Below, one piece after another: positions 3-15,391 of a DNA stretch of 44,733 bases. The stretch spans positions 1 through 44,733 of the forward strand of contig CAZHCL010000007.1 in the NCBI GenBank assembly GCA_964530955.1, read 5' to 3'. The notes under the pieces are model-generated. The model made no database searches. It was not told the DNA's origin and worked only from the letters and a program-made list of their open reading frames with translations. How positions within the stretch are numbered: position 1 is the first letter of the stretch; each line of letters begins with the position of its first letter. Source of the DNA: Candidatus Woesearchaeota archaeon. GTDB taxonomy: Archaea > Nanobdellota > Nanobdellia > Pacearchaeales > GW2011-AR1. Both the position numbers and the translations under genes were made by a program.

Positions 3-3000
3 GGATGGGAATTAGGAGTAATTGCTGGAAAAGCATTTGTAACACAAATAGGAGCATCTATATCCTCAACCTCAAATGTAAACGATGGTAAATGGCATTT
101 TGTTCTGGCTACTTGGAATACTTCTGATTGGAATTTGTATGTTGATGGAGTTTCCCAAGCAAATGGAACGACAACAGTTAATACGCAAGCTCAGACTTTT
201 TTAATAGGCAGGGAAGTTCAATCTTTTGGTAAGGACTTTAATGGAAGTATTGATGATGTAATGCTGTTTAATAGGACTTTATCTTCTGGAGAAATATCTT
301 CATTGTATAATGCTTCTGCTACTCAGTATTACAATAACTTCACTTCTCTTGCCCAGGGCAGTCATACTTTTACTGGCTATGCAGTAGATTCTCTCGGAGG
401 TCTAAATTCAACTGAGACGCGTAATATAGGTTTGTTAGTTTCTCAATTAACTTCATGCGGTAACTTAAGCTATCCAAATGGAATCTATCTTTTACAGAAT
501 AATATTTATAATTATAACGGCACTTGCTTTACAATAACTGCTGATAATGTAACTTTAGACGGGCAAGGATTTACCATTAATGGAACTCAGGACCCAGCCA
601 ATGTTTACTGGGGAGTCAACGCTACGACCTCAACAAATGCGACCATAAGAAATATCACTATCTTGGAATTTGGAGATTATAATAGATTAAATGTTAATGA
701 CGGGGGAGGAATTTATTTATCTGCAAATAATTCATTGATAAATAATGTAAACTTAGGTCTTAATTATCAGGGATTGTTGATTTCTTCTACCTCTTCTAAT
801 AACTCTATGCTAAACAGCGCTTCTTCTTTTAATAGAATAGGAATAACTGTGAATGGTCAGAATAATATTCTTACAAATGTGAATGCAAAGACAAATACCG
901 GTGGAGATGGAATTGATATTAGAGGTAATTATACTAATTTAACAAATATACAAGCAAATTCTAATACTTTAAGTGGTATTTCTGCTGTCAGCAGTTTTAA
1001 TATATTTTCTAACATTACCACTAATTCAAACGCTGGTTTTGGAATAACTCATGGAGGCATGCTTGTTAGCGGTCAGAATAACACTTTTTACAACATTACC
1101 ACTAATTCAAACACTGGTCTTGGAATATTATTTAGTGGATCTAATAGTAGTTTTACCAATGTAGTTGCAAATTTTAATACTAACGGAATACTTGCTGGTA
1201 CTTCAAATATTATCTTTTCTAATTTTGTTGCCAACTCAAACAATAATACAGGTATATCGATTTCTGGGTTAAATCATGTATTTTCTAATATAACCGCCAA
1301 CTCAAACAATAATACAGGTATATCAATTGGCTCAAATTCAAGCAACTTTACCAATGTAGTTGCAAATTCTAATAAAGCTAGCGGAATATCATTTGGCACA
1401 GCTAGTTTTAATATTTTATCTAATGCAACTACGATGTTAAATAACTTAGGTTTATACTTTTCTGCTTCTTCTCAGTTTTCAAACACATTAATCAATTTGA
1501 CTTCCACTAACAATACATTATATGACTTAAATCAGAGTAAAGTAGCCGTAAAAGGAGCATACTTTATTGACGACGTTATTTCTACTTACAACCTTCAAAA
1601 TTCATCTGACCAGATATTCTTCCAGAACTCAAGTTCTGGAGAAATAAGATTTCTGGCAACAACAAGCGGGGCCGGAATAAATGGAACTGGCTTAAATTTG
1701 ATAGGTAATTCAACTTCAGATATAGTAATTATCAATAACAGCGTATTTGTAAATTCAGTCCAGTCTGGACTGAATAGGAGCGCAAATATAACTCTTTACA
1801 ATCTTCCCACTACTCTAGCTAATCCAACAATATTAAGAGATGGAGGTGTATGTCCTTCAAGCATTTGTTACAACTTTACCTCATTAAATGCGGGAAATGT
1901 ATCCTTTAATGTAACTGGTTGGAGTAATTATAGTATATTTGGTAATTTTAATCTTGATTCATGTGGTACTTTAAGTTCTCCAAACGGAATTTACTTCTTA
2001 GGGAAAAATGTTAAAAATTATGCCGGAACTTGCTTTACAATAACTGCAGATAATGTAACCTTAGACGGACAGGGACATACAATAAATGGAACGCAGGATA
2101 TTAATAATGCCTATTGGGGAGTCAATGTTACTAGCGTTAATAATGTGACGATAAAGAATATCACTATTCTTAATTTTGGAAATTATCCCAATCTGGTAGG
2201 TGTACTTGATGGAGGAGGAATTTATCTTTCAGCAAATAAATCAGTAATAAGTAATGTGAATATTAGTTTGAACTATTACGGGCTATTAATAAAATCTGAT
2301 TACAATAATCTAAACGGTATCTACTATTATTCAAATATAAATGGGATTATAATAAATGGCAATTCCAGTGTTATCTCTAATACTACTTCTAATTCATGTT
2401 ATTATGATGGTATAGATTTGAATGGTAACTCTAATAATCTCACAAACATACAATCAAATTCCAACGGACTTGCAGGAATATCTATTGGTTCTAGTTTCAA
2501 CATATTATCTAATGTAACGACTATGCTTAATAAATTGGGAGTATACCTTTCTGCATCCCCTCAAGTTTCAAACACAATAATCAATTTAACTTCCACCAAT
2601 AATACAGTATATGACTTAAATCAGAGCAAAGTAGCAGTAAAAAGCACATACTTTATTGACAGTATTATTTCAACTTATAATCTGCAAAATTCATCCGACC
2701 AGATATTCTTCCAGAACTCAAGTTCTGGAGAAATAAGGTTCCTAACAGGAATAAACGGAACTGGAACAAATCTTATAGGTAATTCAACTTCCGACATAGT
2801 AATTATCAATAACAGCGTATTTGTAAATTCAGTCCAGTCTGGACTGAATAGGAGCGCAAATATAACTCTTTACAATCTTCCCACTGGAGTTGTACTTCCG
2901 ATAATGCTTCGAGATGGTTTTGTTTGTCCTTCAAGCATTTGTTACAACTTTACCTCATTAAATGCAGGAAATGTATCCTTTAATGTAACTGGTTGGAGTA

Positions 3001-6000
3001 ATTATAGTATAGGTAGCAGCATCACTCTAATTAATTCATGTGGAATCTTGAACAATCCAAATGGAATTTACCTTTTACAGAACAATATCTCCAATTACAA
3101 TGGAACCTGCTTCACAATAACTGCAGATAATGTAACCTTAGACGGACAGGGATTCACTATCAACGGAACTCAGGATCCTGCTCATGCATATTGGGGAGTC
3201 AACGCAACAGGTGTTAATAACGCAACCATAAGAAACATCACTATTCTAGATTTCGGAGATTACAACAAAGTAGGTTTATTGGACGGAGGAGGAATATATC
3301 TTTCTGCAAATAGCTCTACTATAATGAATGTAGGTTTAAGCTTTAATTACCAGGGAATTGTTTCAACTATTTACAATTCTACGTTGAATAACATTTCTTC
3401 AGATAATAACCGGGCAGGTATTATCGCTAGTGGCCAGAGTAATATTTTCTCCAATATAGATACAAGTTCAAATTCATTGGGAACAGGTTTTTCATATAAT
3501 GGAAATTTTAGCATCATGACTAATATAACCGCAAATTCAGATTATCGCTCAGTCCTTATAGTGCACACAATAGCCTTTTCTGTTACGGGTAATTCAAATA
3601 ATTTCACATCAATAACTTCAAGTAATAATATAGGAACTGGTCAAAGCGATGGAATTTCAATAACAGGAAATAATCTTAACTTGTTTAATATTACTTCTCT
3701 GAATAATAGGGGAGTAGGCCTTTCGGTTTCAGGAGATTCAGCAAATCTTAATTGGGCAAATCTAAGTTACAATAATTATGATGGGTTAGATATATACGGA
3801 AATTCGGGAAACTTTTCTAATATAGATTCATCATTCGATAATTATGGTATCTATGTTATAGGTAATTCTACCTATTTGAATAATATAACCTCAAACTCAA
3901 ATGGTTTTGATGGAATTTATATTTCTGGAAATTATGATGGATTATCTTTGGCAAACGCTAATTCCAACGGAGGCAACGGTATGACCCTTACCTCAAGTAC
4001 CTCTTGTAACTTCACAGGTATAAATGCAAGCTATAACACTTTAGGTAACGGAGTGTATATTGAATTAAGTAATTCCAATATACTTGCAAATGTAAACGCT
4101 TCATTAAATAGTTATGGAATACTTGCAACAGGAAGTTCTTCAAATAATTTCAATAATATTACTACTTTCTCAAATTCTTTGGATGGAATATATATAACTG
4201 TGGGTTCTTCAAATATACTTGGAAATATTACTTCGAGATTTAATTCAGGTAATGGAATAACTCTTTATCAGTCTGCGGATAGCACTAATCTATCAAATGC
4301 AATATTAAATAACAATACAAATGCTGGATTAAGTGTGCAGAGTAGCTCATATGCAACAATATCCAATATAACGGCAAATACTAACGGGTTTGGATTACTA
4401 GCTTCTTCATTCACATCAAATAATTTCATTAATTTGACTGCTCTTAATAACAGCCAGTATGATTTGAATCAAAGTGATATGGCAATAAATCTTACTTATT
4501 TCATTGACAGTAGAATTGCAAGCTATTCTCTTCTTAATTCATCTAACCAGATATTCTTCCAGAACTCAACATATGCAGAAATAAGATTTTTATCTGGAAT
4601 AAACGGCACTGGAACTAATTTTATAGGAAATGACACTTCAGATATAAGACTTTCTAATAATAGTGTTTTTGTAAACTCAGCACAAAGTAGTCTTAACCAG
4701 CCGGCAAATGTTACTCTTTATGGAAATCCTGCTGGTTCTGCTTCCAATCCTAGAATATTTAGAAATGGTCTTTCCTGTTCATTTAATGTGTGTTATAATT
4801 TCACTTCTTTGACTGCTTCAACAGTTATTTTCAATGTAACTGGATGGAGCAATTACAGTATAGGGAACTTAGATGTTCCTAATATAAGTTTTGTTTATCC
4901 TACTCCCGTAAATACTAGTTTTATTACTTCACCAAGTTTAATAGTTAATTTAAGCACGGCTAATCCAACCAGCCATTATTCTTTTGTTGATTTTGATAAA
5001 TCTTTGGTAGGGTTGTGGAGAATGGAACAAAATAATGCAACTTTTTTTGCTGATGAAGGAAATTATGGATATAATGGAACATGTTACGGAACAAACTGCC
5101 CTACTTTTAATGCCACAGGAAAATTCGGGGGAGCAGTTTATTTCAACGGCTCACAATATATTAATATAACCAGCAATACAACTAACTTACCTATTGGAAG
5201 TCAAAATAGAACGGTAAGTGCTTGGGTAATGTATAATGGAAGCGTTGATTCTCAGGATAGGTATTTCTTCTCTTATGGGCAATTGGCAACTACTAATTTT
5301 TGGGGAATGGGTGTAATTTCTGGCAAATTTATATTTACCCAGGTCGGGGCGAATATTCAGTCAAATACATTGGTAAGCAATGGTAAGTGGTATATGATGA
5401 CTGTAATGTACAATGGAACTGGTACTGGTTTATATGTCAACGGAGTGCTAGAACAGTCAGCTACTTCTGTTGCTTTACCTATCAATACAGTTATTCAGCA
5501 GGCTCACTTTGGAGATGCTTTCTCAGTTGGATCTCAAAGTTTTAATGGACGCGTTGATGACTTAATTATTTTCAACAGAACTTTATCCTCTGGAGAAATA
5601 TCTTCATTGTATAATGCTTCGATAAAGCAATATTCTAATAATTTTAGTTCTTTGAATCAAGGAATTCATACTTTTACTGGTTATGCCGTAAGCAGTCTGG
5701 GAACTAAAAATCAGACTGAAAAAAGAACCGTAAATTTAGATAGTATAAATCCAAATATACAATTTGTCTCTCCAACTTATTCAAACGGAACTTTCTTTGC
5801 AGGGTCTTTGCCAGTGAATATAAGCAGCAGTGATGCGAACACACATTACACTTTTGTAGACTTTGATAAATCATTAGTGGCTTGGTTCAGGTTCAACAAT
5901 GAATCTGGTGAAAATGCTAGCTTCTTCAAAGATTACAGTACATATGGAAATAATATGACTTGCTTCGGAACCTGTCCTACAAGTAATATCTCTGGAGCAT

Positions 6001-7358
6001 TTGGAAAGTCAATTAATGTATTCGGAGCATCGAATTCCTCGCTGAATGCATCATTAAATGGCAATTCACCAAGAAACTTTACTGTGTCAATCTGGATGTC
6101 AACAACATTAACTGGAGATGTTCTTCCATTTTGGTGGGGAACTGGATGTTCAGGCGGAATGATATATATCGGAACAAAATCGTCCCAAGCAGAGTTTGGA
6201 TATTGTGGGGCTGGTCAGAATGTTAATGGTGGCTCAAATCTTAATAACGGAGCTTGGCACAATATTATTGCTGTTGTAAATGACTCTAAAACAATCTTAT
6301 ATGTTGATGGCTTAAGTGTTGCCACTTCTACCCTTCTTCCAGGTAGTATAAATGGAACCTGGAATCTCAACCCTTCGGCGAGGACCACTCCTGAAGGAGA
6401 AGTAGTTGATGAGATATTAGTTTTCAACAGAACTTTATCTGCTGGAGAAATATCTTCTCTTTATAATGCAACTGCAAATCAATATTATAATAATTTTACA
6501 GTAGGATCTGGAAAACACAATTACATCGGATATGCGGAAGATATAGCAGGCAATACAAATCAAACAGACTTTAGAACAGCAATATTTGATTCTCCTCCAA
6601 ATGTCAGCCTCATATCTCCTTTGGATGGTGCCTCAACTACTAACAGAACTCCATTATTTAATTGGACAGGTTCAGATCCGGATAATAATTCTTTGACTTA
6701 TGAGCTTAATATAACCTGCTATGCGCTTGCTGGAGGAATATGCACAGGTAAGGGTAGTGATGATAGGTACTACAACAATAATACTATTTTGGGTAATACG
6801 ACATTTATAATTCCGGGAGATTTGCTTTATTTGTATGACCACAATTATTATTATAATTGGAGCGTTAGGGCTTACGATGGAACCATGTATGGAAATTGGA
6901 CAAATGCTTATAGACTTAATATAAGTTCCTTAGTATTAATAAGCAATCCAGTTAATTCAGTGGTATTCGGTTCCATATCTCTTTTAGCTTCTAATGATAC
7001 GACTAAAAATAATCCAAGTCCATTTGTTCTCCAAAATGATGGAAATTCTTTTGTTAATGTAACTATTACAGGAACTTCACTTTGGAGCGCTATTACAAAT
7101 CCAAGCAAGTATTTCCAGTTTATGGTCGGTAATAATACTGCTCCAGGCTATTCCGAAAATGGTTCATTTATATGGGGAAGTTCTTCAACATTATTCACTA
7201 ATGTTTCCTCTTCAAGCAGCGCAGTAGATATTTCAACTCTCAACTATTCGGATGTAACTGATAGTGCAAGAGTAGACATCAATGTAACGGTTCCTGTCGG
7301 AGAGCCTCCTGGAGCAAAAAACTCAACTATAACTTTCCTGGCGGTGTTGGGAGAATAA
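3..7358 (+). CDS. Giant secreted/surface protein (adhesin or S-layer-associated): LamG-like domains, three right-handed beta-helix (NosD/pectin-lyase-like) modules, an Fn3-like domain and a beta-rich C-terminal domain; 5'-truncated by the window edge
   Basis: The frame is open from base 3 (GWELGVIAGKAFVTQIG...DGKWHFVLATW), so the ORF-track start at 135 is internal. LamG motifs (GKWH/GAWH, LYVDG/LYVNG, FNRTLSxGEISSLYNA) occur three times. Three repeats begin SCGxLxxPNGIY...CFTITADNVTLDGQG. Very Asn/Ser/Thr-rich. Confidence 0.85.
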   Translation, partial: GWELGVIAGKAFVTQIGASISSTSNVNDGKWHFVLATWNTSDWNLYVDGVSQANGTTTVNTQAQTFLIGREVQSFGKDFNGSIDDVMLFNRTLSSGEISSLYNASATQYYNNFTSLAQGSHTFTGYAVDSLGGLNSTETRNIGLLVSQLTSCGNLSYPNGIYLLQNNIYNYNGTCFTITADNVTLDGQGFTINGTQDPANVYWGVNATTSTNATIRNITILEFGDYNRLNVNDGGGIYLSANNSLINNVNLGLNYQGLLISSTSSNNSMLNSASSFNRIGITVNGQNNILTNVNAKTNTGGDGIDIRGNYTNLTNIQANSNTLSGISAVSSFNIFSNITTNSNAGFGITHGGMLVSGQNNTFYNITTNSNTGLGILFSGSNSSFTNVVANFNTNGILAGTSNIIFSNFVANSNNNTGISISGLNHVFSNITANSNNNTGISIGSNSSNFTNVVANSNKASGISFGTASFNILSNATTMLNNLGLYFSASSQFSNTLINLTSTNNTLYDLNQSKVAVKGAYFIDDVISTYNLQNSSDQIFFQNSSSGEIRFLATTSGAGINGTGLNLIGNSTSDIVIINNSVFVNSVQSGLNRSANITLYNLPTTLANPTILRDGGVCPSSICYNFTSLNAGNVSFNVTGWSNYSIFGNFNLDSCGTLSSPNGIYFLGKNVKNYAGTCFTITADNVTLDGQGHTINGTQDINNAYWGVNVTSVNNVTIKNITILNFGNYPNLVGVLDGGGIYLSANKSVISNVNISLNYYGLLIKSDYNNLNGIYYYSNINGIIINGNSSVISNTTSNSCYYDGIDLNGNSNNLTNIQSNSNGLAGISIGSSFNILSNVTTMLNKLGVYLSASPQVSNTIINLTSTNNTVYDLNQSKVAVKSTYFIDSIISTYNLQNSSDQIFFQNSSSGEIRFLTGINGTGTNLIGNSTSDIVIINNSVFVNSVQSGLNRSANITLYNLPTGVVLPIMLRDGFVCPSSICYNFTSLNAGNVSFNVTGWSNYSIGSSITLINSCGILNNPNGIYLLQNNISNYNGTCFTITADNVTLDGQGFTINGTQDPAHAYWGVNATGVNNATIRNITILDFGDYNKVGLLDGGGIYLSANSSTIMNVGLSFNYQGIVSTIYNSTLNNISSDNNRAGIIASGQSNIFSNIDTSSNSLGTGFSYNGNFSIMTNITANSDYRSVLIVHTIAFSVTGNSNNFTSITSSNNIGTGQSDGISITGNNLNLFNITSLNNRGVGLSVSGDSANLNWANLSYNNYDGLDIYGNSGNFSNIDSSFDNYGIYVIGNSTYLNNITSNSNGFDGIYISGNYDGLSLANANSNGGNGMTLTSSTSCNFTGINASYNTLGNGVYIELSNSNILANVNASLNSYGILATGSSSNNFNNITTFSNSLDGIYITVGSSNILGNITSRFNSGNGITLYQSADSTNLSNAILNNNTNAGLSVQSSSYATISNITANTNGFGLLASSFTSNNFINLTALNNSQYDLNQSDMAINLTYFIDSRIASYSLLNSSNQIFFQNSTYAEIRFLSGINGTGTNFIGNDTSDIRLSNNSVFVNSAQSSLNQPANVTLYGNPAGSASNPRIFRNGLSCSFNVCYNFTSLTASTVIFNVTGWSNYSIGNLDVPNISFVYPTPVNTSFITSPSLIVNLSTANPTSHYSFVDFDKSLVGLWRMEQNNATFFADEGNYGYNGTCYGTNCPTFNATGKFGGAVYFNGSQYINITSNTTNLPIGSQNRTVSAWVMYNGSVDSQDRYFFSYGQLATTNFWGMGVISGKFIFTQVGANIQSNTLVSNGKWYMMTVMYNGTGTGLYVNGVLEQSATSVALPINTVIQQAHFGDAFSVGSQSFNGRVDDLIIFNRTLSSGEISSLYNASIKQYSNNFSSLNQGIHTFTGYAVSSLGTKNQTEKRTVNLDSINPNIQFVSPTYSNGTFFAGSLPVNISSSDANTHYTFVDFDKSLVAWFRFNNESGENASFFKDYSTYGNNMTCFGTCPTSNISGAFGKSINVFGASNSSLNASLNGNSPRNFTVSIWMSTTLTGDVLPFWWGTGCSGGMIYIGTKSSQAEFGYCGAGQNVNGGSNLNNGAWHNIIAVVNDSKTILYVDGLSVATSTLLPGSINGTWNLNPSARTTPEGEVVDEILVFNRTLSAGEISSLYNATANQYYNNFTVGSGKHNYIGYAEDIAGNTNQTDFRTAIFDSPPNVSLISPLDGASTTNRTPLFNWTGSDPDNNSLTYELNITCYALAGGICTGKGSDDRYYNNNTILGNTTFIIPGDLLYLYDHNYYYNWSVRAYDGTMYGNWTNAYRLNISSLVLISNPVNSVVFGSISLLASNDTTKNNPSPFVLQNDGNSFVNVTITGTSLWSAITNPSKYFQFMVGNNTAPGYSENGSFIWGSSSTLFTNVSSSSSAVDISTLNYSDVTDSARVDINVTVPVGEPPGAKNSTITFLAVLGE
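1011..1324 (+). repeat. Coil-level direct repeats: 21 bp at 1011-1031 and 1092-1112 (offset 81); 29 bp at 1230-1258 and 1296-1324 (offset 66)
   Basis: AACATTACCACTAATTCAAAC twice and GCCAACTCAAACAATAATACAGGTATATC twice; offsets equal 27 and 22 codons, i.e. single beta-helix coils. Confidence 0.85.
1722..3010 (+). repeat. Near-identical direct repeats at offset 1074 bp: 1722-1811 = 2796-2885 (90 bp, identical) and 1851-1936 vs 2925-3010 (86 bp, one mismatch)
   Basis: Direct nucleotide comparison of the two copies. Confidence 0.85.
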
Positions 7359-7359
7359 A

Positions 7360-7854
7360 ATGGAAAGAAGAAAGATGATAATAGCTATTGATATTGCAGT
7401 GATAGGAATTAGTTTTGTTTTAGTTTTACTTGCAGTAAACTATGCAAGGCCTCTTGTAATCTCTCCAGTAAATGATTTTAGCACAACCAATGATTCCGTT
7501 CTATTCTCTTTCCAGAAAGGTAATATTATTGAGATAGACGACAATCCTAATTTCACTTCTCCGCAAAAAATATCTGCTGCAAATAACTTAGTAATAAATC
7601 TTGAGCCAGGATTATATTACTGGAAAGTTGAGGGAATATTGGACAGTTCGGTCAGAACAATTACTATAAAATCTAGGGTAGATCTCAAATTAAAAGACGC
7701 AGGAAGTCAATATCAGTTAGTTAATGCGGGCAATACTCTTCTTAATGTTGATATGTATAATGGAACAAAATATACTGGGAATATTACTCTTGAAACAGAG
7801 CAGAGCAAGAATGTTTCAGGAACTGTTTTTATTGGGAGACAATCCAATGGATAA
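7360..7854 (+). CDS. N-terminally membrane-anchored beta-rich protein (Fn3/Ig-like), 164 aa
   Basis: Hydrophobic helix at residues about 7-26; PLVISP..LEPGLYYWKV resembles an Fn3-like strand pattern; starts 1 nt after the giant gene stop, with GGAG upstream. Confidence 0.7.
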   Translation: MERRKMIIAIDIAVIGISFVLVLLAVNYARPLVISPVNDFSTTNDSVLFSFQKGNIIEIDDNPNFTSPQKISAANNLVINLEPGLYYWKVEGILDSSVRTITIKSRVDLKLKDAGSQYQLVNAGNTLLNVDMYNGTKYTGNITLETEQSKNVSGTVFIGRQSNG

Positions 7855-9040
7855 ATTTACAGTTATATTTATATCTTTGATAATTTTGCTAGCTAGCAGT
7901 TCTTTCACTGCAGCTTTAGGGATAACTCCTGGAATGACCACTCTTGAGTTTTCACCTGGTCAGGAAAAGACAATTTCATTTACAATAATCAACTCTGAGC
8001 ACAAGGATTTGCGCTTGCAGATATACTCTCAGGGAGAGCTTAATCAAAGTGTAGTTTTAAGTACGGAACAGATTAATATGAGCTCTTCTCAAGAAGAACA
8101 GACTTTTCAAGCAATTCTTAAGTTGACTGGAAACTTATCTCCAGGAAAACATACTTTGGGAATAGTTGTGATGGAACAGGCTACTCCCGCAGCTAGGGGT
8201 GCGCAGGCATCTATCGGTGCTCAGCTGGCAGTAATGCATCAAGTTGTAATCAATGTTCCTTACCCGGGTAAATATTTGGAAGGAAATTTACAAATAACTG
8301 GAGATAATCCTAAGAATTTTGTTATATCTTTAAATAATCTTGGAAGAGCAAATATAAATAAAGTTTCTTCTAGCATACTAATATACAATTCTTCTGGAGA
8401 TAATGTTAAAAATTTGACAACAAATGAAATTTCTCTTAAGTCTGGAGAACAAAATGAGATAACTGCTCAGTGGAATGTTGATGCTCTTGATGGTAATTAT
8501 CTTGCAAAGGCAGTTCTTGATTATGACAATCAAGAGGTTTTGCTTCAAGCTAATTTTGATGTGGGTCAATTTTTGCTTGAACTTCAGCAGCTTTTCGTAA
8601 AAGATTTCACTTTAGGAGGAATTGCAAAGTTTAACTTAGTTGTGCAGAACAGGTGGAGTCAGACGTTAAATGATGTTTATGCAGAAATGAATGTTTACAA
8701 CAATAACATTGAGGAAATCGCATCAGAAAAGTCTGCTACTTATAATATTCCTTCAGGATTACAGACCACTATTAATTATTATTGGGATACTGCTAACGTA
8801 AGTCCAGGTCAGTACAATGCTAGTGTCATTCTTCATTATGGAGATAAGAATACTCAGAGTAACATAGGACTTAACGTAGGGCAGAACTCCATAGATGTGA
8901 CTGGATTGGGTTACGTAATCTCTTCTCAAGGCACAGGTTCAGGTTCAAATGTTAATATGACTTTAGTAATTATAATAGGGTTCCTTGTGCTTCTTAACGT
9001 GGCTTGGTTCCTAATATTCAGAAGAAAGAAAAAGCAATAA
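7847..9040 (+). CDS. Secreted, C-terminally anchored multi-Ig-like surface protein (DUF916/PapD/CARDB-like), 397 aa
   Basis: Start reassigned to ATG 7847 (GGAG at 7835-7838; 8-nt overlap with the upstream stop). Signal peptide MDKF...SFTAA, LGITPG motif, repeated NxG strands, C-terminal TM followed by RRKKKQ. Confidence 0.75.
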   Translation: MDKFTVIFISLIILLASSSFTAALGITPGMTTLEFSPGQEKTISFTIINSEHKDLRLQIYSQGELNQSVVLSTEQINMSSSQEEQTFQAILKLTGNLSPGKHTLGIVVMEQATPAARGAQASIGAQLAVMHQVVINVPYPGKYLEGNLQITGDNPKNFVISLNNLGRANINKVSSSILIYNSSGDNVKNLTTNEISLKSGEQNEITAQWNVDALDGNYLAKAVLDYDNQEVLLQANFDVGQFLLELQQLFVKDFTLGGIAKFNLVVQNRWSQTLNDVYAEMNVYNNNIEEIASEKSATYNIPSGLQTTINYYWDTANVSPGQYNASVILHYGDKNTQSNIGLNVGQNSIDVTGLGYVISSQGTGSGSNVNMTLVIIIGFLVLLNVAWFLIFRRKKKQ

Positions 9041-9041
9041 T

Positions 9042-9818
9042 TTATTTATTTTTTATTTTATCCCAGAGATTCATTCCTTCTACACTATCTTTAAGCATTT
9101 CAGGGCTTTCATTGATTATTCTTATCTCTTTATTTTTTGGCAGGTTTTCGAGAAGTTCTTTCCACGCTTTTTTTTCAGTAGGAATATGGTTTTTTTCTCC
9201 CTTTTCTCCGTAAACTATTCCTGAGAAGTGTACATGCCATTCTTTTGAAGGAAATAAATTTGAAATTTTTTCATAATCTACTTTTTTGTCTCTGGCAAGT
9301 ATATGTGCGAAATCTATGCAGAAAGAGCAATCTGTTTCCTTTACTAATCTGGAAATTTCTTCTACACTACCAAAGACATTTATTTTTCCCATTGTTTCAG
9401 GAGCTATTTTTATTTTCCAACCTTTGTTTTTTATTTCTTTTATTATTTCTATAACTCCTTCTTTTATAGTTTCATATGCCTTTTCTTTATCGTCTCCGTA
9501 ATAGCCTGGATGAAAAACAACAACTTTTACTCCAAGAAGTTCTCCTATCTCGCAGCATTGCAATATTCTTTGCTTAGTTGCTTCTCTTTTTTCTTTCTCA
9601 GCAGAGTTGAGATTCACCCAGTATTGTGCATGGATGCTTAGGTCTATTCCTAACTCGGCTGCCTTTTTGCCTATAATCCTGGCTTCATCAGGTTTTATGT
9701 AAACTGAATAGGTAAAAGCTATTTCGCAGGCTTTCAGTCCTAGTTTATGATATTTTTCAAGTGTTTCTAGAGCTGTTTTTACAGGACCTAAACCTGCTGG
9801 TCCAAATTTTATCACCAT
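9042..9818 (-). CDS. nfo: Endonuclease IV / AP endonuclease family 2 (TIM barrel)
   Basis: FGPAG, SIHAQYWVNL, FHPGYY, PETMGK, CIDFAH, HVHFSG and NESP motifs. Confidence 0.85.
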   Translation of the reverse strand: MVIKFGPAGLGPVKTALETLEKYHKLGLKACEIAFTYSVYIKPDEARIIGKKAAELGIDLSIHAQYWVNLNSAEKEKREATKQRILQCCEIGELLGVKVVVFHPGYYGDDKEKAYETIKEGVIEIIKEIKNKGWKIKIAPETMGKINVFGSVEEISRLVKETDCSFCIDFAHILARDKKVDYEKISNLFPSKEWHVHFSGIVYGEKGEKNHIPTEKKAWKELLENLPKNKEIRIINESPEMLKDSVEGMNLWDKIKNK

Positions 9819-9859: not shown

Positions 9860-10594
9860 TTAGAACTTCTTGTTGAGATTTATTCCGAATACGACTCTAT
9901 TCTTGAATATTCCGTGTATTCCATCTATTTTTCTCTGTGCGCTCAGAGAAGGAGTAAGCGTAAATCCTTTTCCAAGATCAAAGTTTACTTTACTTTGTGC
10001 CGCAACATGAGTAATTCCCGATTCAGAGGTGAAGAAATAGTCGTTGTAGGTGACTCTTCCTTCAAGTGATAGACTGATCTTTTGTGAAAGTTTCAGCGTC
10101 TTGTCTAAGGTAATTTGACCGAGATTTCCTTGATTACTTGTCTCACCGTGTGCATGGCTGAAATAGAGCTTTAAGTTTATTGGAAGATTTTTTGTTTTGA
10201 GAGAATATTCTTCAGTTATAGCATCAGGACTTGTTGAATCTGGGAAAGTGAAATAAATCACTCCTGCCCTGAAATCAAAGTTTTTTGTTGAATAGGTATA
10301 TCCTAGACTATTGTCTATTTCATTGACGCTGCCTTTTTTTTCATCAAGGTTGTTCCAGATATTGTATTCAATAGGACCAACATTGAAACCAATGTCGCTT
10401 TGCATTACAGGACCTTTTGATAGTGTAAACCCGAATGTTCCTAAGTATCTAGAGAATAAACCTGCATCAGTATATACACCATTTATTACCGGTTTATTAG
10501 CTTCTTCAGGTGTATTTTCTCCTGCCTTTGCGTAGGGCGTTGCAAGAGCTAAAGCCAGTGCTCCGAGCGCAGTTATCTTTGAAAGTATTTTCAT
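9860..10594 (-). CDS. Secreted beta-barrel-like protein resembling TorF/Gcw_chp putative porins, 244 aa
   Basis: Signal peptide ending AKA; SRY..G......PVMQ, NEIDxxLGY and AGVIYFTFP patterns; many amphipathic strands; ends GINLNKKF with a terminal Phe. Confidence 0.65.
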   Translation of the reverse strand: MKILSKITALGALALALATPYAKAGENTPEEANKPVINGVYTDAGLFSRYLGTFGFTLSKGPVMQSDIGFNVGPIEYNIWNNLDEKKGSVNEIDNSLGYTYSTKNFDFRAGVIYFTFPDSTSPDAITEEYSLKTKNLPINLKLYFSHAHGETSNQGNLGQITLDKTLKLSQKISLSLEGRVTYNDYFFTSESGITHVAAQSKVNFDLGKGFTLTPSLSAQRKIDGIHGIFKNRVVFGINLNKKF

Positions 10595-10595
10595 G

Positions 10596-11798
10596 TTAGA
10601 AAGTATAAAGAAAAGCTCCTTTGACAGTTAAATCTCCCTTTCCTGCTATTGGAATGCTTGCACCAAAAGCTGGACCCATATAATGATTTCCATACTTAAT
10701 TCTGAAAATTGTTTGAGGCTCAATTGTATCCGCGCTCTTTTTGCTATCGAAAGCATGCTTTTCTTCAACTGTCAGGCCTAATTTATAATGTCCTAGTAAG
10801 ACCTTAGGAGTAAAGTAGCTTACACCAGCTGCTAAGAATCCTGCATGACTTTTAGTATTCAAGCTTGTTCTAACATCGAATGAAATTCCTCCATTTGATC
10901 TATCATAAGGATTTATTGTTTCAGTTTTAGTAACTGAAAGTGGCAAAACACTCTGATTAAAACTATCATCTCCATTTACCCCTCTTCCAACAGCCCATAT
11001 TGCTCCGCTCTTGCTTGTTGAAGGGTTTTTAGAGAAATAAAATTCTCCGTTTAATAATTTTTCATCATTTTGAGAATTCCAGTCTATCCTTCCATTAAAG
11101 AATGCTCCCCACTGGTCCTTATTTCCCGAAGTCATCCAAAATCCGCCTAGGCTTTTATTTATTCTTACTTTATCTTCTCTTTCTGCAAAAGCGAGGCCTA
11201 TACTATTTCTTTCTGAGAAGTCGAAAATTCCATTAACTAAATACTGATCTTGTTGTAGGGGATTTTGAATATTATCGAAACCGAGCCCAATATTTAATCT
11301 TTCAGTTAATTGGTAATTCAATCCAGTTCCTAATCTTTGTGCATAGTCTGTTGTTTTTTCTTCTACGTTTATTGTTAAAGTAGTTTTACTATCTATTTTA
11401 TGTTCTGATTCAAATCCGAGACCTGCAATGTCTCCTGTGCTGCCAAAGATTCTCATCTTTGTATTTAGACCACCCAATGAGAACTCGGGAGTTCTTAATC
11501 CAATAGGAACATAATGAATATTTTTCCCGTTGGATTCTTGAATTATATCATATGCTCTAAAATATTCCATAAATTGCCCTTTTACCGCAATAACTGCTCC
11601 GTCATAAGAGCCTGAAGGAGCAAAGCCAAACGTGCTCTTTATAGTAGAATTATTATTAAGGTCTCCAGAATAGCTTATTGCTGTTCTATAAACATTTTCC
11701 TGAGGTGTTTCCTGTGCTTTTGCTACCTTGCTTGTAAGTAATGATGCTGCCGCAAGCGCTACGGCGAATCTTGACTTTACTTTATTTTTTGTTTTCAT
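10596..11798 (-). CDS. Secreted beta-barrel-like protein, 400 aa
   Basis: Signal peptide ending AKA; many alternating hydrophobic/polar strands with aromatic ends (LGTGLNYQL, LNIGLGFD, WGAFFNGRIDW); ends VKGAFLYTF; RBS GAGGT at 11812-11816. Confidence 0.6.
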   Translation of the reverse strand: MKTKNKVKSRFAVALAAASLLTSKVAKAQETPQENVYRTAISYSGDLNNNSTIKSTFGFAPSGSYDGAVIAVKGQFMEYFRAYDIIQESNGKNIHYVPIGLRTPEFSLGGLNTKMRIFGSTGDIAGLGFESEHKIDSKTTLTINVEEKTTDYAQRLGTGLNYQLTERLNIGLGFDNIQNPLQQDQYLVNGIFDFSERNSIGLAFAEREDKVRINKSLGGFWMTSGNKDQWGAFFNGRIDWNSQNDEKLLNGEFYFSKNPSTSKSGAIWAVGRGVNGDDSFNQSVLPLSVTKTETINPYDRSNGGISFDVRTSLNTKSHAGFLAAGVSYFTPKVLLGHYKLGLTVEEKHAFDSKKSADTIEPQTIFRIKYGNHYMGPAFGASIPIAGKGDLTVKGAFLYTF

Positions 11799-11854
11799 TG
11801 TATTTTTTGTAACCTCTATAAAGTTACAATGTAAAATAGAAATAATAGACTTTA

Positions 11855-11862
11855 ATATTTAA
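11855..11862 (-). promoter_or_regulatory. Candidate TATA box for the two beta-barrel genes
   Basis: TTAAATAT on the minus strand about 56 nt upstream of ATG 11798, leaving room for the RBS-containing leader. Confidence 0.45.
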
Positions 11863-11863
11863 C

Positions 11864-11889
11864 TGATATTATTGATATCACTAATATCA
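11864..11889. promoter_or_regulatory. 26-bp symmetric operator-like site TGATAT-N3-TGATATCA-N3-ATATCA
   Basis: Inner palindrome (11873-11880) and outer half-sites (11864-11869, 11884-11889) share one centre; the site lies between two divergent TATA boxes. Confidence 0.6.
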
Positions 11890-11894
11890 TTATA

Positions 11895-11902
11895 TTTATA
11901 TA
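11895..11902 (+). promoter_or_regulatory. TATA box of the PhoU-family regulator (probably leaderless transcript)
   Basis: TTTATATA ending 21 nt before ATG 11924; no RBS. Confidence 0.65.
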
Positions 11903-11923
11903 GTCCGTTTTTCTCTCACAGTC

Positions 11924-12847
11924 ATGGAAAGAAAACTGATAAAGCAGGGGGGCGGAGGATATACAATTTATCTTCCGAAAGGTTGGGTTGAGAAGCATGG
12001 TCTTGATAAAGGAAAAGGAGTTTCAATCATTGAAAAGGAAGATAATCTTGTAATAAGCTCTTCAATAAAGACAAAAAATGAAATAAGAATAGAAGTGGGG
12101 AAAAAGGCAGAAGAGGAAATACACAATATCCTTACCCATGCTTACAGAAAAGGCTATTCTAGAATTGTTTTGACTGGAAAATCAAATCAGATAGTAAAGA
12201 AAGTAAAGGAATCAGTAAGCACCATTCTCCTAGGTTTTGAAGTTACAGATATTTCCGATGATTCTATAACAATAGAGAATATTTCTGAACCTGCTGAACA
12301 GAAGTATGACCTTATACTCAAGAAAATATTTTTCCTGATAGAGGAGACACATTCGCTTCTTAGTTCAGGAATGGAGAAGAAAAAACTTGCTGATTTTAAT
12401 GAAATAACCCAAATAAAGGAACAGACTGATAAATATATATTGTTTTGCAGAAGACTTTTATTTAATGAAAGCTCTGGGAGAAATATCTTTTTTGATTGGG
12501 AATTTCTGACTTTTCTCAATCACATAGAGCATATTTATTATTATCTCTATAAGTACGCTAAAGATTCTGATAAACTGCAGTATGATGAAATAGGAAAAAT
12601 GGTTGCAGAGGTAAAAGATTATTTTGCGCTTCTTAAGTCGTCATATTATGAAAAGGATTTTGGAAAGATAGAGAAGATAAATGAATTAAAAAAGAAGTAT
12701 CAGTTTGGCAAATGTCTCGAAGCAATAGAAAAAAGCAGAGGCGATTCAGCAGTCGTCTTCTCTTACCTAAGGGAACTTTTCAGGATGATTCAGATAGCGA
12801 CAAGCCCAATCCTAAGTGAAATTTTAGAAGAAAAGAACAAGTATTAA
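11924..12847 (+). CDS. Archaeal phosphate-uptake regulator: AbrB/MazE-type DNA-binding domain fused to PhoU-like helical domains
   Basis: N-terminal RKLIKQGGGGYTIYLPKGWV, then AYRKGY..I and GFEVT, followed by a helical PhoU-like region. Confidence 0.85.
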   Translation: MERKLIKQGGGGYTIYLPKGWVEKHGLDKGKGVSIIEKEDNLVISSSIKTKNEIRIEVGKKAEEEIHNILTHAYRKGYSRIVLTGKSNQIVKKVKESVSTILLGFEVTDISDDSITIENISEPAEQKYDLILKKIFFLIEETHSLLSSGMEKKKLADFNEITQIKEQTDKYILFCRRLLFNESSGRNIFFDWEFLTFLNHIEHIYYYLYKYAKDSDKLQYDEIGKMVAEVKDYFALLKSSYYEKDFGKIEKINELKKKYQFGKCLEAIEKSRGDSAVVFSYLRELFRMIQIATSPILSEILEEKNKY

Positions 12848-14583
12848 TGAGAATTAATTTCGTCCATTTCGTGGTGGGGGCTATCAGGATAATAGCTGTA
12901 TAATCTGGGATTATCAGCATAGTAAACCTGACTGAGCCAAGCCTTTAGGAAATCTTTTTCATCTCTACCTATTAAATAATTTCCTTTTTTGTCTTTTGCA
13001 TCTACATATTTGATAAAATCAGGGCTTCCTGAATATTTTTTTGCTGAATTAACCCTATTTTCTCCAAGAAGGGATATTGCCAAAGTATCTTCAAGGTCAC
13101 AGGTTCCATCACTTTTTCTTGATTGTGATAATGCATGTTCAATTGATTTTGCAACTATTAGGTGGAATTCACATATCTTTGATTCTGAGATGATCTTGGT
13201 TCTTTCGCTAAATTTGTAGTGTACCATCCAATTTATGAACGCTCCTTCAGAATAATAGTTAGGGTTATCAGCTTCAGATTCCGAGAGGTTATCAGGTACT
13301 TGATGGTGGTCTGGTACAGTACATCTTCTAGCCCAAACAGCAGAGTTATATGCATTCAGCAAAAAGGCTGCGCTTCTGTTTTTAGTGGCATATCTAGCTA
13401 TATTTTCTGCGAATCCATAGGTCATAAATGAATCCTGGTATGGTTTAGGAAGCTTTAGCGAGCTCAAATCTTCCCTTGAAAAGACAATTGGAGTTTCCTT
13501 TGGGCTTTCCAAATAAAGAAGCCCTTCTGCCTTAATATTAGCAGGAATTACTTCCTTTTCTGGTATGCTTTTTATTTTATATGTTGCATAGGCTGCTAAG
13601 GCAAGAGGAGCCATTATATAGAATGCTCTTCTTGCATGTTTCTTCAAGACTTCAAGAGCATTTTGATTGTCTATTGCCCTTTTCACACCATCAACTATAC
13701 TTGCTCCGCTCCATGGGCGTATAGAAGGCTTAAACGAAGAACATTCTTCAAGAATTTTTCTATATGTTCTTGGGATTTTTTTCAGTTTCTTTTTGACGGA
13801 TAGTTTAAAATCTTTAGGATTAATTTCTTTGAAAAATTCTGGATTAGAATTAAGCTCATCCTCAAATGGGTATTTACCAGTCATTATTCTATAGCTAAGA
13901 GAAAAGAATGAATAAGCATCTGCTTCTCTTGTTGGATGGCTTTTTTCATCAAAGCATTCAGGCGCCCTTGTTTGGAGGAAGCCCATATTATCTCTGGGAG
14001 ACACGGTTGCTCCTGAAAGTGAAGCACAGGTTGATGTTCCTAAATCGTTTAGCAAAGGTCTTTCATCATAATTATCCAGAGCAATATTATCTGGTTTTAT
14101 ATCCGAATGGGCTCGGTTAAGCAAGGAGTGCGTTTCGGATATTCCTCTAGCTATTCCAAGCAAGGTATTATTTACATCTTCTTTCGTTAATCCATGGTTG
14201 AGATATTTTCTTTCCACTCCATCATCGAGCTTATCTGATAAAAATTTCTTATATTCAGGCATGACAATAAATGGCTTGTCTTCTTCATCTGTTTCGATAA
14301 ATCCAGGAACTATATGCGCGCAAGGCTTAAGTTTTCTTGATTCGTTCATTATTGCTTTTTCAGCGCTTATATTTCTGTAATCCATTTGTCTTGCTGCCAA
14401 TGGACTTGGGTCAAGAACTTTTATGGCTACTTTTTCTCCAGTAAGAGCATCGACTGCAGAGTAGACTTTTCCCCATGTGCCTTCTCCAATTCTTCTGGCT
14501 ATTTTGTACCTTTTACTCTGAATTATTCCTTCTAATCCTTCTACTTCTTTGTTATGAGTGGCTTCTTCAGATAGAACTGCCAT
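12844..14583 (-). CDS. Hanks-type Ser/Thr protein kinase with a central TM helix and a C-terminal extracytoplasmic domain, 579 aa
   Basis: GEGTWG, VAIK, HSDIKPDN, NDLG, RAPE, DAYS and GKYPF motifs; TM AFYIMAPLALAAYATY. Start reassigned to ATG 14583 behind AGGAGG. Confidence 0.85.
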   Translation of the reverse strand: MAVLSEEATHNKEVEGLEGIIQSKRYKIARRIGEGTWGKVYSAVDALTGEKVAIKVLDPSPLAARQMDYRNISAEKAIMNESRKLKPCAHIVPGFIETDEEDKPFIVMPEYKKFLSDKLDDGVERKYLNHGLTKEDVNNTLLGIARGISETHSLLNRAHSDIKPDNIALDNYDERPLLNDLGTSTCASLSGATVSPRDNMGFLQTRAPECFDEKSHPTREADAYSFFSLSYRIMTGKYPFEDELNSNPEFFKEINPKDFKLSVKKKLKKIPRTYRKILEECSSFKPSIRPWSGASIVDGVKRAIDNQNALEVLKKHARRAFYIMAPLALAAYATYKIKSIPEKEVIPANIKAEGLLYLESPKETPIVFSREDLSSLKLPKPYQDSFMTYGFAENIARYATKNRSAAFLLNAYNSAVWARRCTVPDHHQVPDNLSESEADNPNYYSEGAFINWMVHYKFSERTKIISESKICEFHLIVAKSIEHALSQSRKSDGTCDLEDTLAISLLGENRVNSAKKYSGSPDFIKYVDAKDKKGNYLIGRDEKDFLKAWLSQVYYADNPRLYSYYPDSPHHEMDEINSH

Positions 14584-14740
14584 TTTTTTCCTCCTTCTGG
14601 CCTTCCAGAATTTCAATAGTGACCTGAGTGATTGTTCCTGGTCTTAGCTGTGATTCAATAACTCGGGGTATTACTATGATTGCCTGGCTTCCGTGCTTGG
14701 CTATTTTCTTTGTTATAACGAATTTTTTCTGTTTTTCCAT
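14567..14740 (-). CDS. Small AbrB/MazE-like (DUF2080-like) swapped-hairpin protein, 57 aa
   Basis: KKIAKHGSQAIIVIP..LRPG...VTI pattern; start reassigned to ATG 14740; the end overlaps the kinase start by 17 nt. Confidence 0.65.
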   Translation of the reverse strand: MEKQKKFVITKKIAKHGSQAIIVIPRVIESQLRPGTITQVTIEILEGQKEEKNGSSI

Positions 14741-14775
14741 TCTTTTACTTATACATTTTTTATACATAAGTCTTT

Positions 14776-14866: not shown

Positions 14867-15391
14867 ATGGCGAGCAGATTATCAAGAAAGGTATCGGATA
14901 AGATTGGGCTATTTGGTAATACCTATGTTGCATCTTCTCGAGGAAACAACTTTTTGGCCTGGGCAGTAATGCATAATTTATATGCGCATGCCGAGAGGAA
15001 TCCTGCATTTGCAGAAGAATTGTCTTCAACGACTGCTGATCCAAATATGAAACAGTTGTTTAATCTATGGCTTAATATTGCAGATTCAGTTGAAGTTGCA
15101 GGCTATTACGTATTAACAGAAGGCAGATTACACGCAGGAAACTCTAAACTATCTAATGGTTTGGCATGTCTTTTTGGACAGACAGATAATAAATCTAATG
15201 GATATTTTTCTAGAAAGGATGAGGCTAGGGAGCTATTAATTGAAAAGGGTTATAGAGATGTTGTTGATCTTGCCGATCATATCAATATTCATTTTCCTCA
15301 AGATAATAGTAATGGTTCTAGACTAAGAGCAAATTATGTAAGAGCTTCTAGAATGACTGTGCCCAAGAGTGGAAGGGCATATCATTCATAA
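14867..15391 (+). CDS. Hypothetical protein, 174 aa
   Basis: Clean ORF with its own TATA and a GAGGG RBS; no family recognised. Confidence 0.65.
   Translation: MASRLSRKVSDKIGLFGNTYVASSRGNNFLAWAVMHNLYAHAERNPAFAEELSSTTADPNMKQLFNLWLNIADSVEVAGYYVLTEGRLHAGNSKLSNGLACLFGQTDNKSNGYFSRKDEARELLIEKGYRDVVDLADHINIHFPQDNSNGSRLRANYVRASRMTVPKSGRAYHS

Follow-up and report, generated by a model that had tools for sequence, protein, structure and literature searches.

The window analysed here is an entire contig of 44.7 kb (CAZHCL010000007.1; 44,733 nucleotides) from a metagenome-assembled genome (MAG) deposited as Candidatus Woesearchaeota archaeon (GCA_964530955.1; G000). The genome has a size of 761 kb, a completeness of 82.7% and a contamination of 0.15%. 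The contig carries an operon of two genes, B400 and B244, whose exported products are predicted to be membrane β-barrels of the type found in bacterial outer membranes:

10596..11798, minus strand: B400, first gene of the operon, encoding a 400-aa exported protein predicted to form a large membrane β-barrel of about 18-20 strands
9860..10594, minus strand: B244, second gene of the operon, encoding a 244-aa exported protein predicted to form a 12-stranded β-barrel, a remote relative of TorF/Gcw_chp

The two genes are separated by a single base (10595) and form a translationally coupled operon. Both encoded proteins possessed a basic, charged N-terminal start followed by a hydrophobic core and the residues A-K-A ahead of the likely cleavage site, predicted in the pair between TPYAKA and GEN and between SKVAKA and QET. 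No transmembrane helix was detected in the mature parts, where the maximum 19-residue Kyte-Doolittle value was 0.58 for B244 and 0.95 for B400, a transmembrane helix being expected to reach 1.6. Both proteins end in phenylalanine (GINLNKKF in B244, KGAFLYTF in B400). A first-pass annotation of this DNA had already described the coupling across a 1-nt gap, the A-K-A signal peptides, the terminal phenylalanine and the mature parts devoid of transmembrane helices, and each of these features was borne out.

In diderm bacteria, a terminal phenylalanine on an amphipathic last strand is the β-signal read by BamA/Omp85. An aromatic last residue (F, W or Y) was found in 105 of 144 representatives of the B244 family (73%), compared to 59 of the 595 open reading frames (ORFs) of at least 150 aa in this genome (10%), and 134 of 147 family members had a signal-peptide-like N-terminus. 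A paralogue screen recovered B244 and B400 in a single copy each, and a whole-genome screen for outer-membrane protein (OMP) candidates returned no other ORF combining a signal peptide with a barrel-like C-terminus. Three other ORFs had bacterial-looking signal peptides (G000 C12:28148-29053, minus strand; C2:41645-42706, plus strand; C9:16837-17211, plus strand), one of them with a lipobox-like motif ending in LSAGC; their C-termini were not barrel-like.

Fold and relatives of the two exported proteins

The AlphaFold2 model of B244, computed from an alignment of 150 sequences, had a predicted local distance difference test score (pLDDT) of 93 and a predicted TM-score (pTM) of 0.84. Its 12 strands were arranged in a closed antiparallel meander barrel with an even strand number, the arrangement that defines the OMP fold. 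Foldseek returned 179 matches at E<1e-3, and every one among those listed was a membrane barrel, either natural or designed/engineered, including PcoB, FapF, Tsx, NanC and OmpG. In pairwise alignments with VIA-align, the highest score was obtained with KdgM (Z 16.9, root-mean-square deviation (rmsd) 2.5 Å, 167 of 171 residues aligned), followed by FapF (Z 16.5) and by PcoB, VhGalP and NanC (Z 16.2 each).

The 12-stranded porins of the KdgM/NanC type (4pr7, 4fqe, 2wjq, 8xua) were thus the best structural match of B244. Like B244, they are small, monomer-sized barrels whose loops are short, whose lumen is polar and whose last residue is aromatic, but they differ from it in sequence (7-10% identity, no match of B244 to PF06178 at E<=1) and in their host, B244 being encoded by an archaeon with no known outer membrane or β-barrel assembly machinery (BAM). 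The copper channel PcoB (7pge; TM-score 0.58 normalized by query and 0.69 by target) and the amyloid secretion channel FapF (5o65) are also 12-stranded; B244, by comparison, lacks the N-terminal coiled coil or plug of FapF, does not lie in a copper or amyloid operon, and shares no sequence similarity with either protein.

The distribution of residues along the strands agreed with a barrel embedded in lipid. With strands delimited by DSSP, a sequence-based analysis of the 150 aligned proteins showed a dyad pattern, i.e. one hydrophobic and one polar face, on all 12 strands of B244. The hydrophobic faces comprised 70 residues, of which 5 were charged and 47 aliphatic or aromatic, and the polar faces 71 residues, 20 of them charged. 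A hydrophobic interior cannot be buried in a 12-stranded barrel of this radius, which leaves the hydrophobic face pointing outward; from this geometry it would be lipid-facing, and the polar face would line the lumen. B244 is therefore modelled with high confidence as a closed 12-stranded barrel with hydrophobic and polar strand faces. Structure prediction and Foldseek agreed on the membrane barrel that the first-pass annotation had proposed, and neither a soluble β-sandwich nor a propeller was obtained.

Sequence searches connected B244 to described families at a distance. Direct searches gave sub-threshold matches to Pfam YaiO (E 0.014) and to TIGR02001 (TorF; E 0.019), the latter with 14.5 bits against a curated cut-off of 47.15 and so below membership. 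PF09694 (Gcw_chp) was not listed for B244 at E<=1 and had zero matches in a six-frame search of five carrier genomes. A profile built from 9 relatives (A1) and searched exhaustively against 1.84 billion representatives recovered 1951 clusters at E<=1e-3, including 592 at E<=1e-10. Among the best 150 of these 1951 representatives, 27 matched PF09694 at E<0.01 (best 1.4e-8) and 7 matched MipA (PF06629), while a few matched OMP_b-brl, Porin_4 or Porin_2. The 27 Gcw_chp and 7 MipA matches place B244, at the level of sequence profiles, in the bacterial outer-membrane barrel superfamily, as a remote branch lying outside Gcw_chp by curated score. The resemblance to TorF/Gcw_chp previously noted by eye consequently holds for the family as a profile-level link, whereas B244 itself falls below the cut-offs. 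TorF/Gcw_chp (PF09694, TIGR02001) and MipA, which are the sole sequence-level link of B244, are bacterial, whereas the nearest B244 clusters look archaeal in five sampled contexts and are paired with regulators of the archaeal TrmB or AbrB type.

Sister genomes encoded additional small secreted barrel-like proteins of 220 aa (L019:3965-4627) and 208 aa (L036:519-1145), with weak matches to bacterial DUF481 (E 0.0074) and DUF2490 (E 0.019). The gene for the 220-aa protein lies directly behind the conserved operator described below.

B400 belonged to no Pfam or NCBIfam family. Single-sequence and profile searches of a set of 5.8 billion proteins returned four relatives only, all from this lineage (fused or split forms were not searched for). 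The AlphaFold2 model derived from a 5-sequence alignment had a pLDDT of 62.5, a pTM of 0.60 and approximately 20 strands. All of its significant Foldseek matches were membrane barrels, as were the top 50 matches in a comparison with 48,161 PDB chains (VIA-wide), the best of which were VDAC1 (Z 12.4), CdiB, FhaC, BamA and TamA (Z 11-12), Tom40 (Z 11.5) and OccD3 (Z 11.0). The strand faces were asymmetric, with 9 of 107 residues charged on one side and 30 of 115 on the other. A long loop modelled at low confidence (residues 257-303) contained six invariant residues and may fold into the lumen.

Weak as this model is, it yielded neither a sandwich nor a propeller among its top PDB matches, and B400 is predicted with moderate confidence to be a large barrel, in line with the earlier proposal. 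The matched classes comprised VDAC/Tom40 (19 strands), CdiB/FhaC/BamA/TamA (16) and OprD/Occ (18), with Z 11-12.4 over 225-245 residues at an rmsd of 4-6 Å on a model of pLDDT 62; the approximately 20 strands of B400 fit none of these classes exactly.

Two candidate relationships of B400 were considered. B400 and B244 are not regarded as paralogues, the profile-profile probability between B400 and the B244 family being 5.6%. B400 as a cryptic Omp85 found no support in its sequence, which matched neither PF01103 nor PF07244, and is retained only as a speculation; a resemblance may exist at the level of the fold, where the structural Z of 11-12 against Omp85-type barrels ties with that against VDAC/Tom40. 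A candidate GRGV motif in the loop 257-303, comparable to the RGY/F of Omp85 loop 6, was not conserved in two distant relatives (2/5). Language-model look-alikes, taken as leads only, included uncharacterised bacterial clusters (0.92-0.94) and OmpG families (0.90).

Genomic setting and distribution

The barrel genes are located in the middle of the contig, alongside archaeal genes that include ribosomal protein L15e, two TrmB regulators, isoleucyl-tRNA synthetase (IleRS), class II ribonucleotide reductase (RNR) and gyrase. The first-pass annotation had placed them among archaeal genes behind a TATA-like element, and both parts of this description were recovered, the latter as the sequence TTTATAG. 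The guanine-cytosine (GC) content of the two genes was 0.35-0.37, compared to a range of 0.31-0.39 along the window. The pair also recurred with unchanged archaeal neighbours (the AbrB-type regulator, the Ser/Thr kinase, two MacB/FtsX genes, TrmB and IleRS) in independent ENA, JGI and Logan assemblies and in sister genomes. A misassembled bacterial segment had been named beforehand as a possible source of error; no linkage break was found, and the conserved synteny and native GC content agree in showing that the locus is native to the archaeon and free of misassembly.

Within the genus, where genomes have been deposited under the labels 'Candidatus Woesearchaeota archaeon' and 'Nanoarchaeota archaeon', the B244 family was present in 5 of 16 genomes, and it was found in 7 of 60 close relatives overall. 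Across the phylum, it occurred in 20 of 400 high-quality genomes, representing 16 of 281 genera. A scan of genome contigs with a 5-sequence alignment located only three archaeal loci. Five family contexts sampled between ranks 20 and 138 of the match list were all archaeal, as judged from NreA/NucS/TrmB, GatDE with an ATP-dependent ligase, diphthamide synthase, archaeal D-Tyr-tRNA deacylase and Elp3, and two more family representatives were named archaeon or Nanoarchaeia. From these five contexts and two named records, the nearest part of the family looks predominantly archaeal. Outside this genus, the divergent partner of the barrel gene was usually a TrmB-type regulator.

Downstream of the operon, the window contains a 258-aa AP_endonuc_2 protein gene encoding a TIM barrel of the xylose-isomerase type (9042-9818), which is the sole gene between the barrel operon and a group of surface-protein genes at the start of the contig. 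This group begins with a giant protein of more than 2407 aa (3-7358, plus strand), which runs off the contig start and contains three Laminin_G_3 (concanavalin-like lectin) stretches and a β-helix. It continues with a 164-aa protein (7360-7854, plus strand) and a protein of 438 aa anchored to the membrane at its C-terminus (7724-9040, plus strand), and the whole group (3-9040) looks like an adhesin-type cluster. At other loci, the barrel gene is followed by one or two same-strand genes resembling S-adenosylmethionine-dependent methyltransferases (L020:2631-4071 and 12862-14360; L031:564-1478; L042:2015-2953; L050:7793-8752).

The divergent regulatory cassette

On its upstream side, the barrel operon faces a regulator gene across a short intergenic region, followed by a kinase gene in tail-to-tail orientation:

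11799..11923: divergent control region, 125 bp between B400 and the AbrB-type regulator
11864-11889: palindrome TGATATTA-N10-TAATATCA, in the control region
11852-11873: block AATAATATCAG-N2-A-N-ATATTAA, in the control region
11808-11828: palindrome TGTAAC-N9-GTTACA, surrounding the TATA-like TTTATAG
11924..12847, plus strand: AbrB/SpoVT-type regulator of 307 aa with a helical C-terminal domain (PF04014, E 1.9e-5), divergent from the barrel operon
12844..14616, minus strand: membrane Hanks-type Ser/Thr kinase of 590 aa with an N-terminal kinase domain (Pkinase, E 1.9e-24) and one transmembrane segment near residue 340
14567..14767, minus strand: small conserved ORF of 66 aa, overlapping the kinase start and part of the kinase cassette

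The TATA-like element begins 24 nt ahead of the B400 ATG. The blocks of the control region were kept in eight loci (alignment A5), in which the proteins were merely 25-55% identical, and the conserved operator preceded three barrel types, namely B400, B244-like proteins and the 220-aa barrel-like protein. Conserved more strongly than the genes, this control region would connect three types of barrel with a regulator of the AbrB type and with a receptor kinase, a link that is new to this analysis. The operator block was unique in this genome. TGTAAC-N9-GTTACA had a second genomic copy (TGTAACTACATAGAAGTTACA; G000 C15:14811-14831), located approximately 40 nt upstream of an unrelated 274-aa ORF (C15:14871-15695), and may be a promoter-flanking element of wider use.

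The AbrB/SpoVT domain (PF04014) was detected in all eight orthologues of the regulator (best E 1.3e-9) and a weak PhoU signal in one of the eight, while a search of the PDB with the regulator profile returned nothing useful. The regulator adjoined barrel genes in the window and in L001, L005/6, L009, L011, L019, L020 (twice) and L036. Besides the window, four cassettes elsewhere (one each in L001 and L019, two in L020) had kinase and regulator arranged tail-to-tail, and L036 contained a C-terminal fragment of the kinase; the window thus carries the combination of a Hanks-type kinase and an adjacent AbrB/SpoVT protein that defines the cassette. The C-terminal domain of the kinase, of approximately 240 aa, had no Pfam match.

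A comparable combination of a membrane Ser/Thr kinase with an AbrB-fold regulator is provided by PrkC/PrkD/YabT acting on AbrB in Bacillus subtilis. Unlike Bacillus AbrB, the regulator described here possesses a large helical, weakly PhoU-like C-terminal domain, and the archaeal cassette appears, from its gene arrangement, to drive porin-like genes.

The small ORF that overlaps the kinase start was 61% identical to a 57-aa ORF preceding the kinase in L001. It was considered as a further AbrB protein, but a likeness to AbrB was not confirmed, no Pfam family being found for it. A 174-aa orphan ORF beside the cassette (14867-15391, plus strand) also had no Pfam family.

Two further AbrB-type regulators of the same family were located beside other operons of this genome (G000 C2:3694-4602, minus strand; C4:33813-34868, plus strand), of which the former is oriented convergently to a 414-aa gene and divergently to an operon with CheY-like receivers among its genes. 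Since these regulators accompany other operons, the cassette would be a general switch, with the barrels as one of its outputs.

Assembly, envelope and site of action

Transmembrane β-barrels assembled by Omp85 are regarded as a hallmark of the outer membranes of bacteria, mitochondria and plastids, and to our knowledge archaea are not known to make transmembrane β-barrels. Searches for Omp85 (PF01103), POTRA (PF07244) and TamB (PF04357) returned nothing over the cut-offs in G000 or in four other carriers of the family (G099, G108, G145 and G154), which are 97-100% complete; the same searches were positive in diderm control genomes. Nothing over the cut-offs was found for Skp and LptD in the same five genomes either, SurA and BamB-E not having been searched for.

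The preferred reading, judged to have about an even chance of being correct, is that B400 and B244 are genuine native archaeal transmembrane β-barrel channels, exported through Sec and of the bacterial outer-membrane type. After export, they would fold into an extracytoplasmic lipid bilayer without BAM, and the folded barrels would act as passive channels. OMPs can fold spontaneously into permissive bilayers. Gene order and the conserved operator suggest that the barrels are not constitutive parts of the envelope but are induced by the module next to them: the receptor Ser/Thr kinase, through its putative extracytoplasmic domain, would signal to the AbrB-type regulator, whose targets would be the conserved palindromes located between the two divergent promoters. 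The barrels most plausibly act at the cell surface or in a contact zone with a partner cell, where they probably serve as a conditionally deployed accessory channel at the cell-cell interface. An accessory channel is preferred to a standing envelope because the barrels are few, their distribution is patchy, the biogenesis genes were not found and the operon has its own signal switch; in the genome comparisons, the distribution and the failure to recover the biogenesis genes make an accessory barrel independent of BAM more likely than a genuine second envelope.

A more specific version of the preferred reading can be put forward tentatively, and is considered rather improbable in its full form. 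It would have the barrels insert independently of Omp85 into an unrecognised outer lipid layer of the archaeon itself or into the envelope of its partner, which would be opened at a signal from the kinase so that nutrients can be drawn. B400 may then help to insert B244, as its nearest folds include the barrels of Omp85, Sam50 and Tom40.

Several points weigh against the preferred reading. It is not obvious how a monomer with a hydrophobic exterior could reach a distant bilayer after leaving the Sec pore unless assisted by chaperones, none of which were found. A BAM-like reader would be the simplest explanation for the conserved C-terminal phenylalanine, but no such reader was seen, and G000 is just 82.7% complete. 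In addition, the B400 model is weak (TM-scores 0.2-0.36, together with the pLDDT of 62.5, the rmsd of 4-6 Å and the five-sequence alignment given above), and it is from gene order that the phosphorylation step and the operator binding are suggested.

A barrel family that is large and belongs mostly to archaea would be relevant to the question of BAM-independent barrel assembly, and to that of the exchange of material between genome-reduced DPANN symbionts and their partner cells. The locus provides handles for experiments in its two small refoldable proteins, its defined operator and its kinase-regulator pair.

Among the alternatives, the one that survives best is still doubtful. In this view, a Gram-negative partner would receive the barrels in its outer membrane, or they would enter a fused contact zone; the channel formed there would tap host metabolites, and the kinase would sense contact. 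The outer-membrane type of fold and the conserved terminal aromatic residue would suit a bacterial outer membrane, the patchy accessory distribution and the dedicated signal control resemble those of host-interaction genes, and a giant adhesin-like surface protein is encoded near the operon. SLT (murein-transglycosylase) domains were moreover present in 209 of 400 genomes of the phylum, including 14 of 20 barrel carriers. Against delivery, BAM reads the β-signal from the periplasmic side, which is out of reach for an external donor, and no host is known; as far as the account in 10.1101/2023.02.24.529834 goes, all cultivated DPANN have archaeal hosts. No SLT match was obtained in this genome or in its relative G145, and the enrichment among carriers is weak (14 of 20, compared to 195 of 380 non-carriers, uncorrected for relatedness). 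The co-occurrence of SLT domains with the barrels was for this reason discarded as evidence of a bacterial host. At the sequence level, the spread of these domains points to widespread bacteria-directed wall-cutting proteins. They often lie within open frames of 2000-3000 aa (e.g. G157:C10:7882-8178 and G369:C11:12205-12477).

Somewhat less probable is a role other than that of a channel, either as secreted or surface barrels binding hydrophobic cargo such as scavenged lipids, or as barrels seated in the archaeon's own cytoplasmic membrane from outside. DPANN rely on external lipids and metabolites, a dependence that would suit a cargo carrier, and the failure to find insertion machinery is also compatible with a non-channel role. 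A 'lipid-trapping' superfamily of porin-like proteins has been described, in a paper that devotes one sentence to a possible PopA-like (porin-like) relative in Altiarchaeales (PMC12228718); apart from it, the literature search yielded nothing published about barrels of the porin type in Woesearchaeota or DPANN. A soluble carrier is disfavoured by the outer face of B244, which is hydrophobic on 12 of 12 strands across the 150 sequences and thus unfavourable for a soluble monomer. Moreover, every structural neighbour is an integral membrane barrel, and the polar, charged lumen side is a poor fit to a lipid-binding pocket.

A real second (outer) membrane, in which the barrels would be resident porins assembled by a route other than Omp85, is unlikely. 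Compact, short-loop barrels with a hydrophobic belt are typical of resident OMPs. The outer membrane of Ignicoccus hospitalis, a crenarchaeon unrelated to the present lineage, is dominated by Ihomp1/Imp1227, a protein that forms a small helical oligomer instead of a β-barrel. The outer membrane itself is established in Ignicoccus (PMC4243693; 10.64898/2026.09.08.750209), I. hospitalis being the one archaeon in which it is accepted (PMC4243693). Only two barrel genes are present in G000, and the five genomes searched, four of them with a completeness of 97-100%, yielded no Omp85, POTRA, TamB, Skp or LptD. An envelope plan should furthermore persist among kin, in contrast to a family found in 20 of 400 genomes, 16 of 281 genera and 5 of 16 genomes within the genus. 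The first-pass annotation had offered a second membrane with true porins as one explanation and had suggested searching the genome for Omp85/BamA and TamB; none being found in the five genomes, this explanation is disfavoured. What stands of the earlier interpretation are the native archaeal barrels of outer-membrane type, whereas a standing diderm envelope is disfavoured by the presence of only two barrels, the failure to find Omp85 in the five genomes and an occurrence in approximately 5% of genomes of the phylum.

The idea that a bacterial fragment entered an archaeal MAG through an error of assembly or binning is very hard to sustain: OMP-type genes are unexpected in archaea and one close homologue carries the NCBI label 'Bacteroidota bacterium', but the mid-contig location among L15e, TrmB, gyrase and RNR genes, the synteny in the ENA, JGI and Logan assemblies and in sister genomes, the GC content within the window range and the contamination of 0.15% all speak against it, as does the 'Bacteroidota' contig itself, which is archaeal by its NreA, NucS and TrmB genes. 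This record (L046; JBHOSX010000018.1, MFC2133922.1), one of the five sampled family contexts, also encodes an H+-PPase and a fused PyrB-PyrI; the contig is probably of archaeal origin and was given the wrong bin or label.

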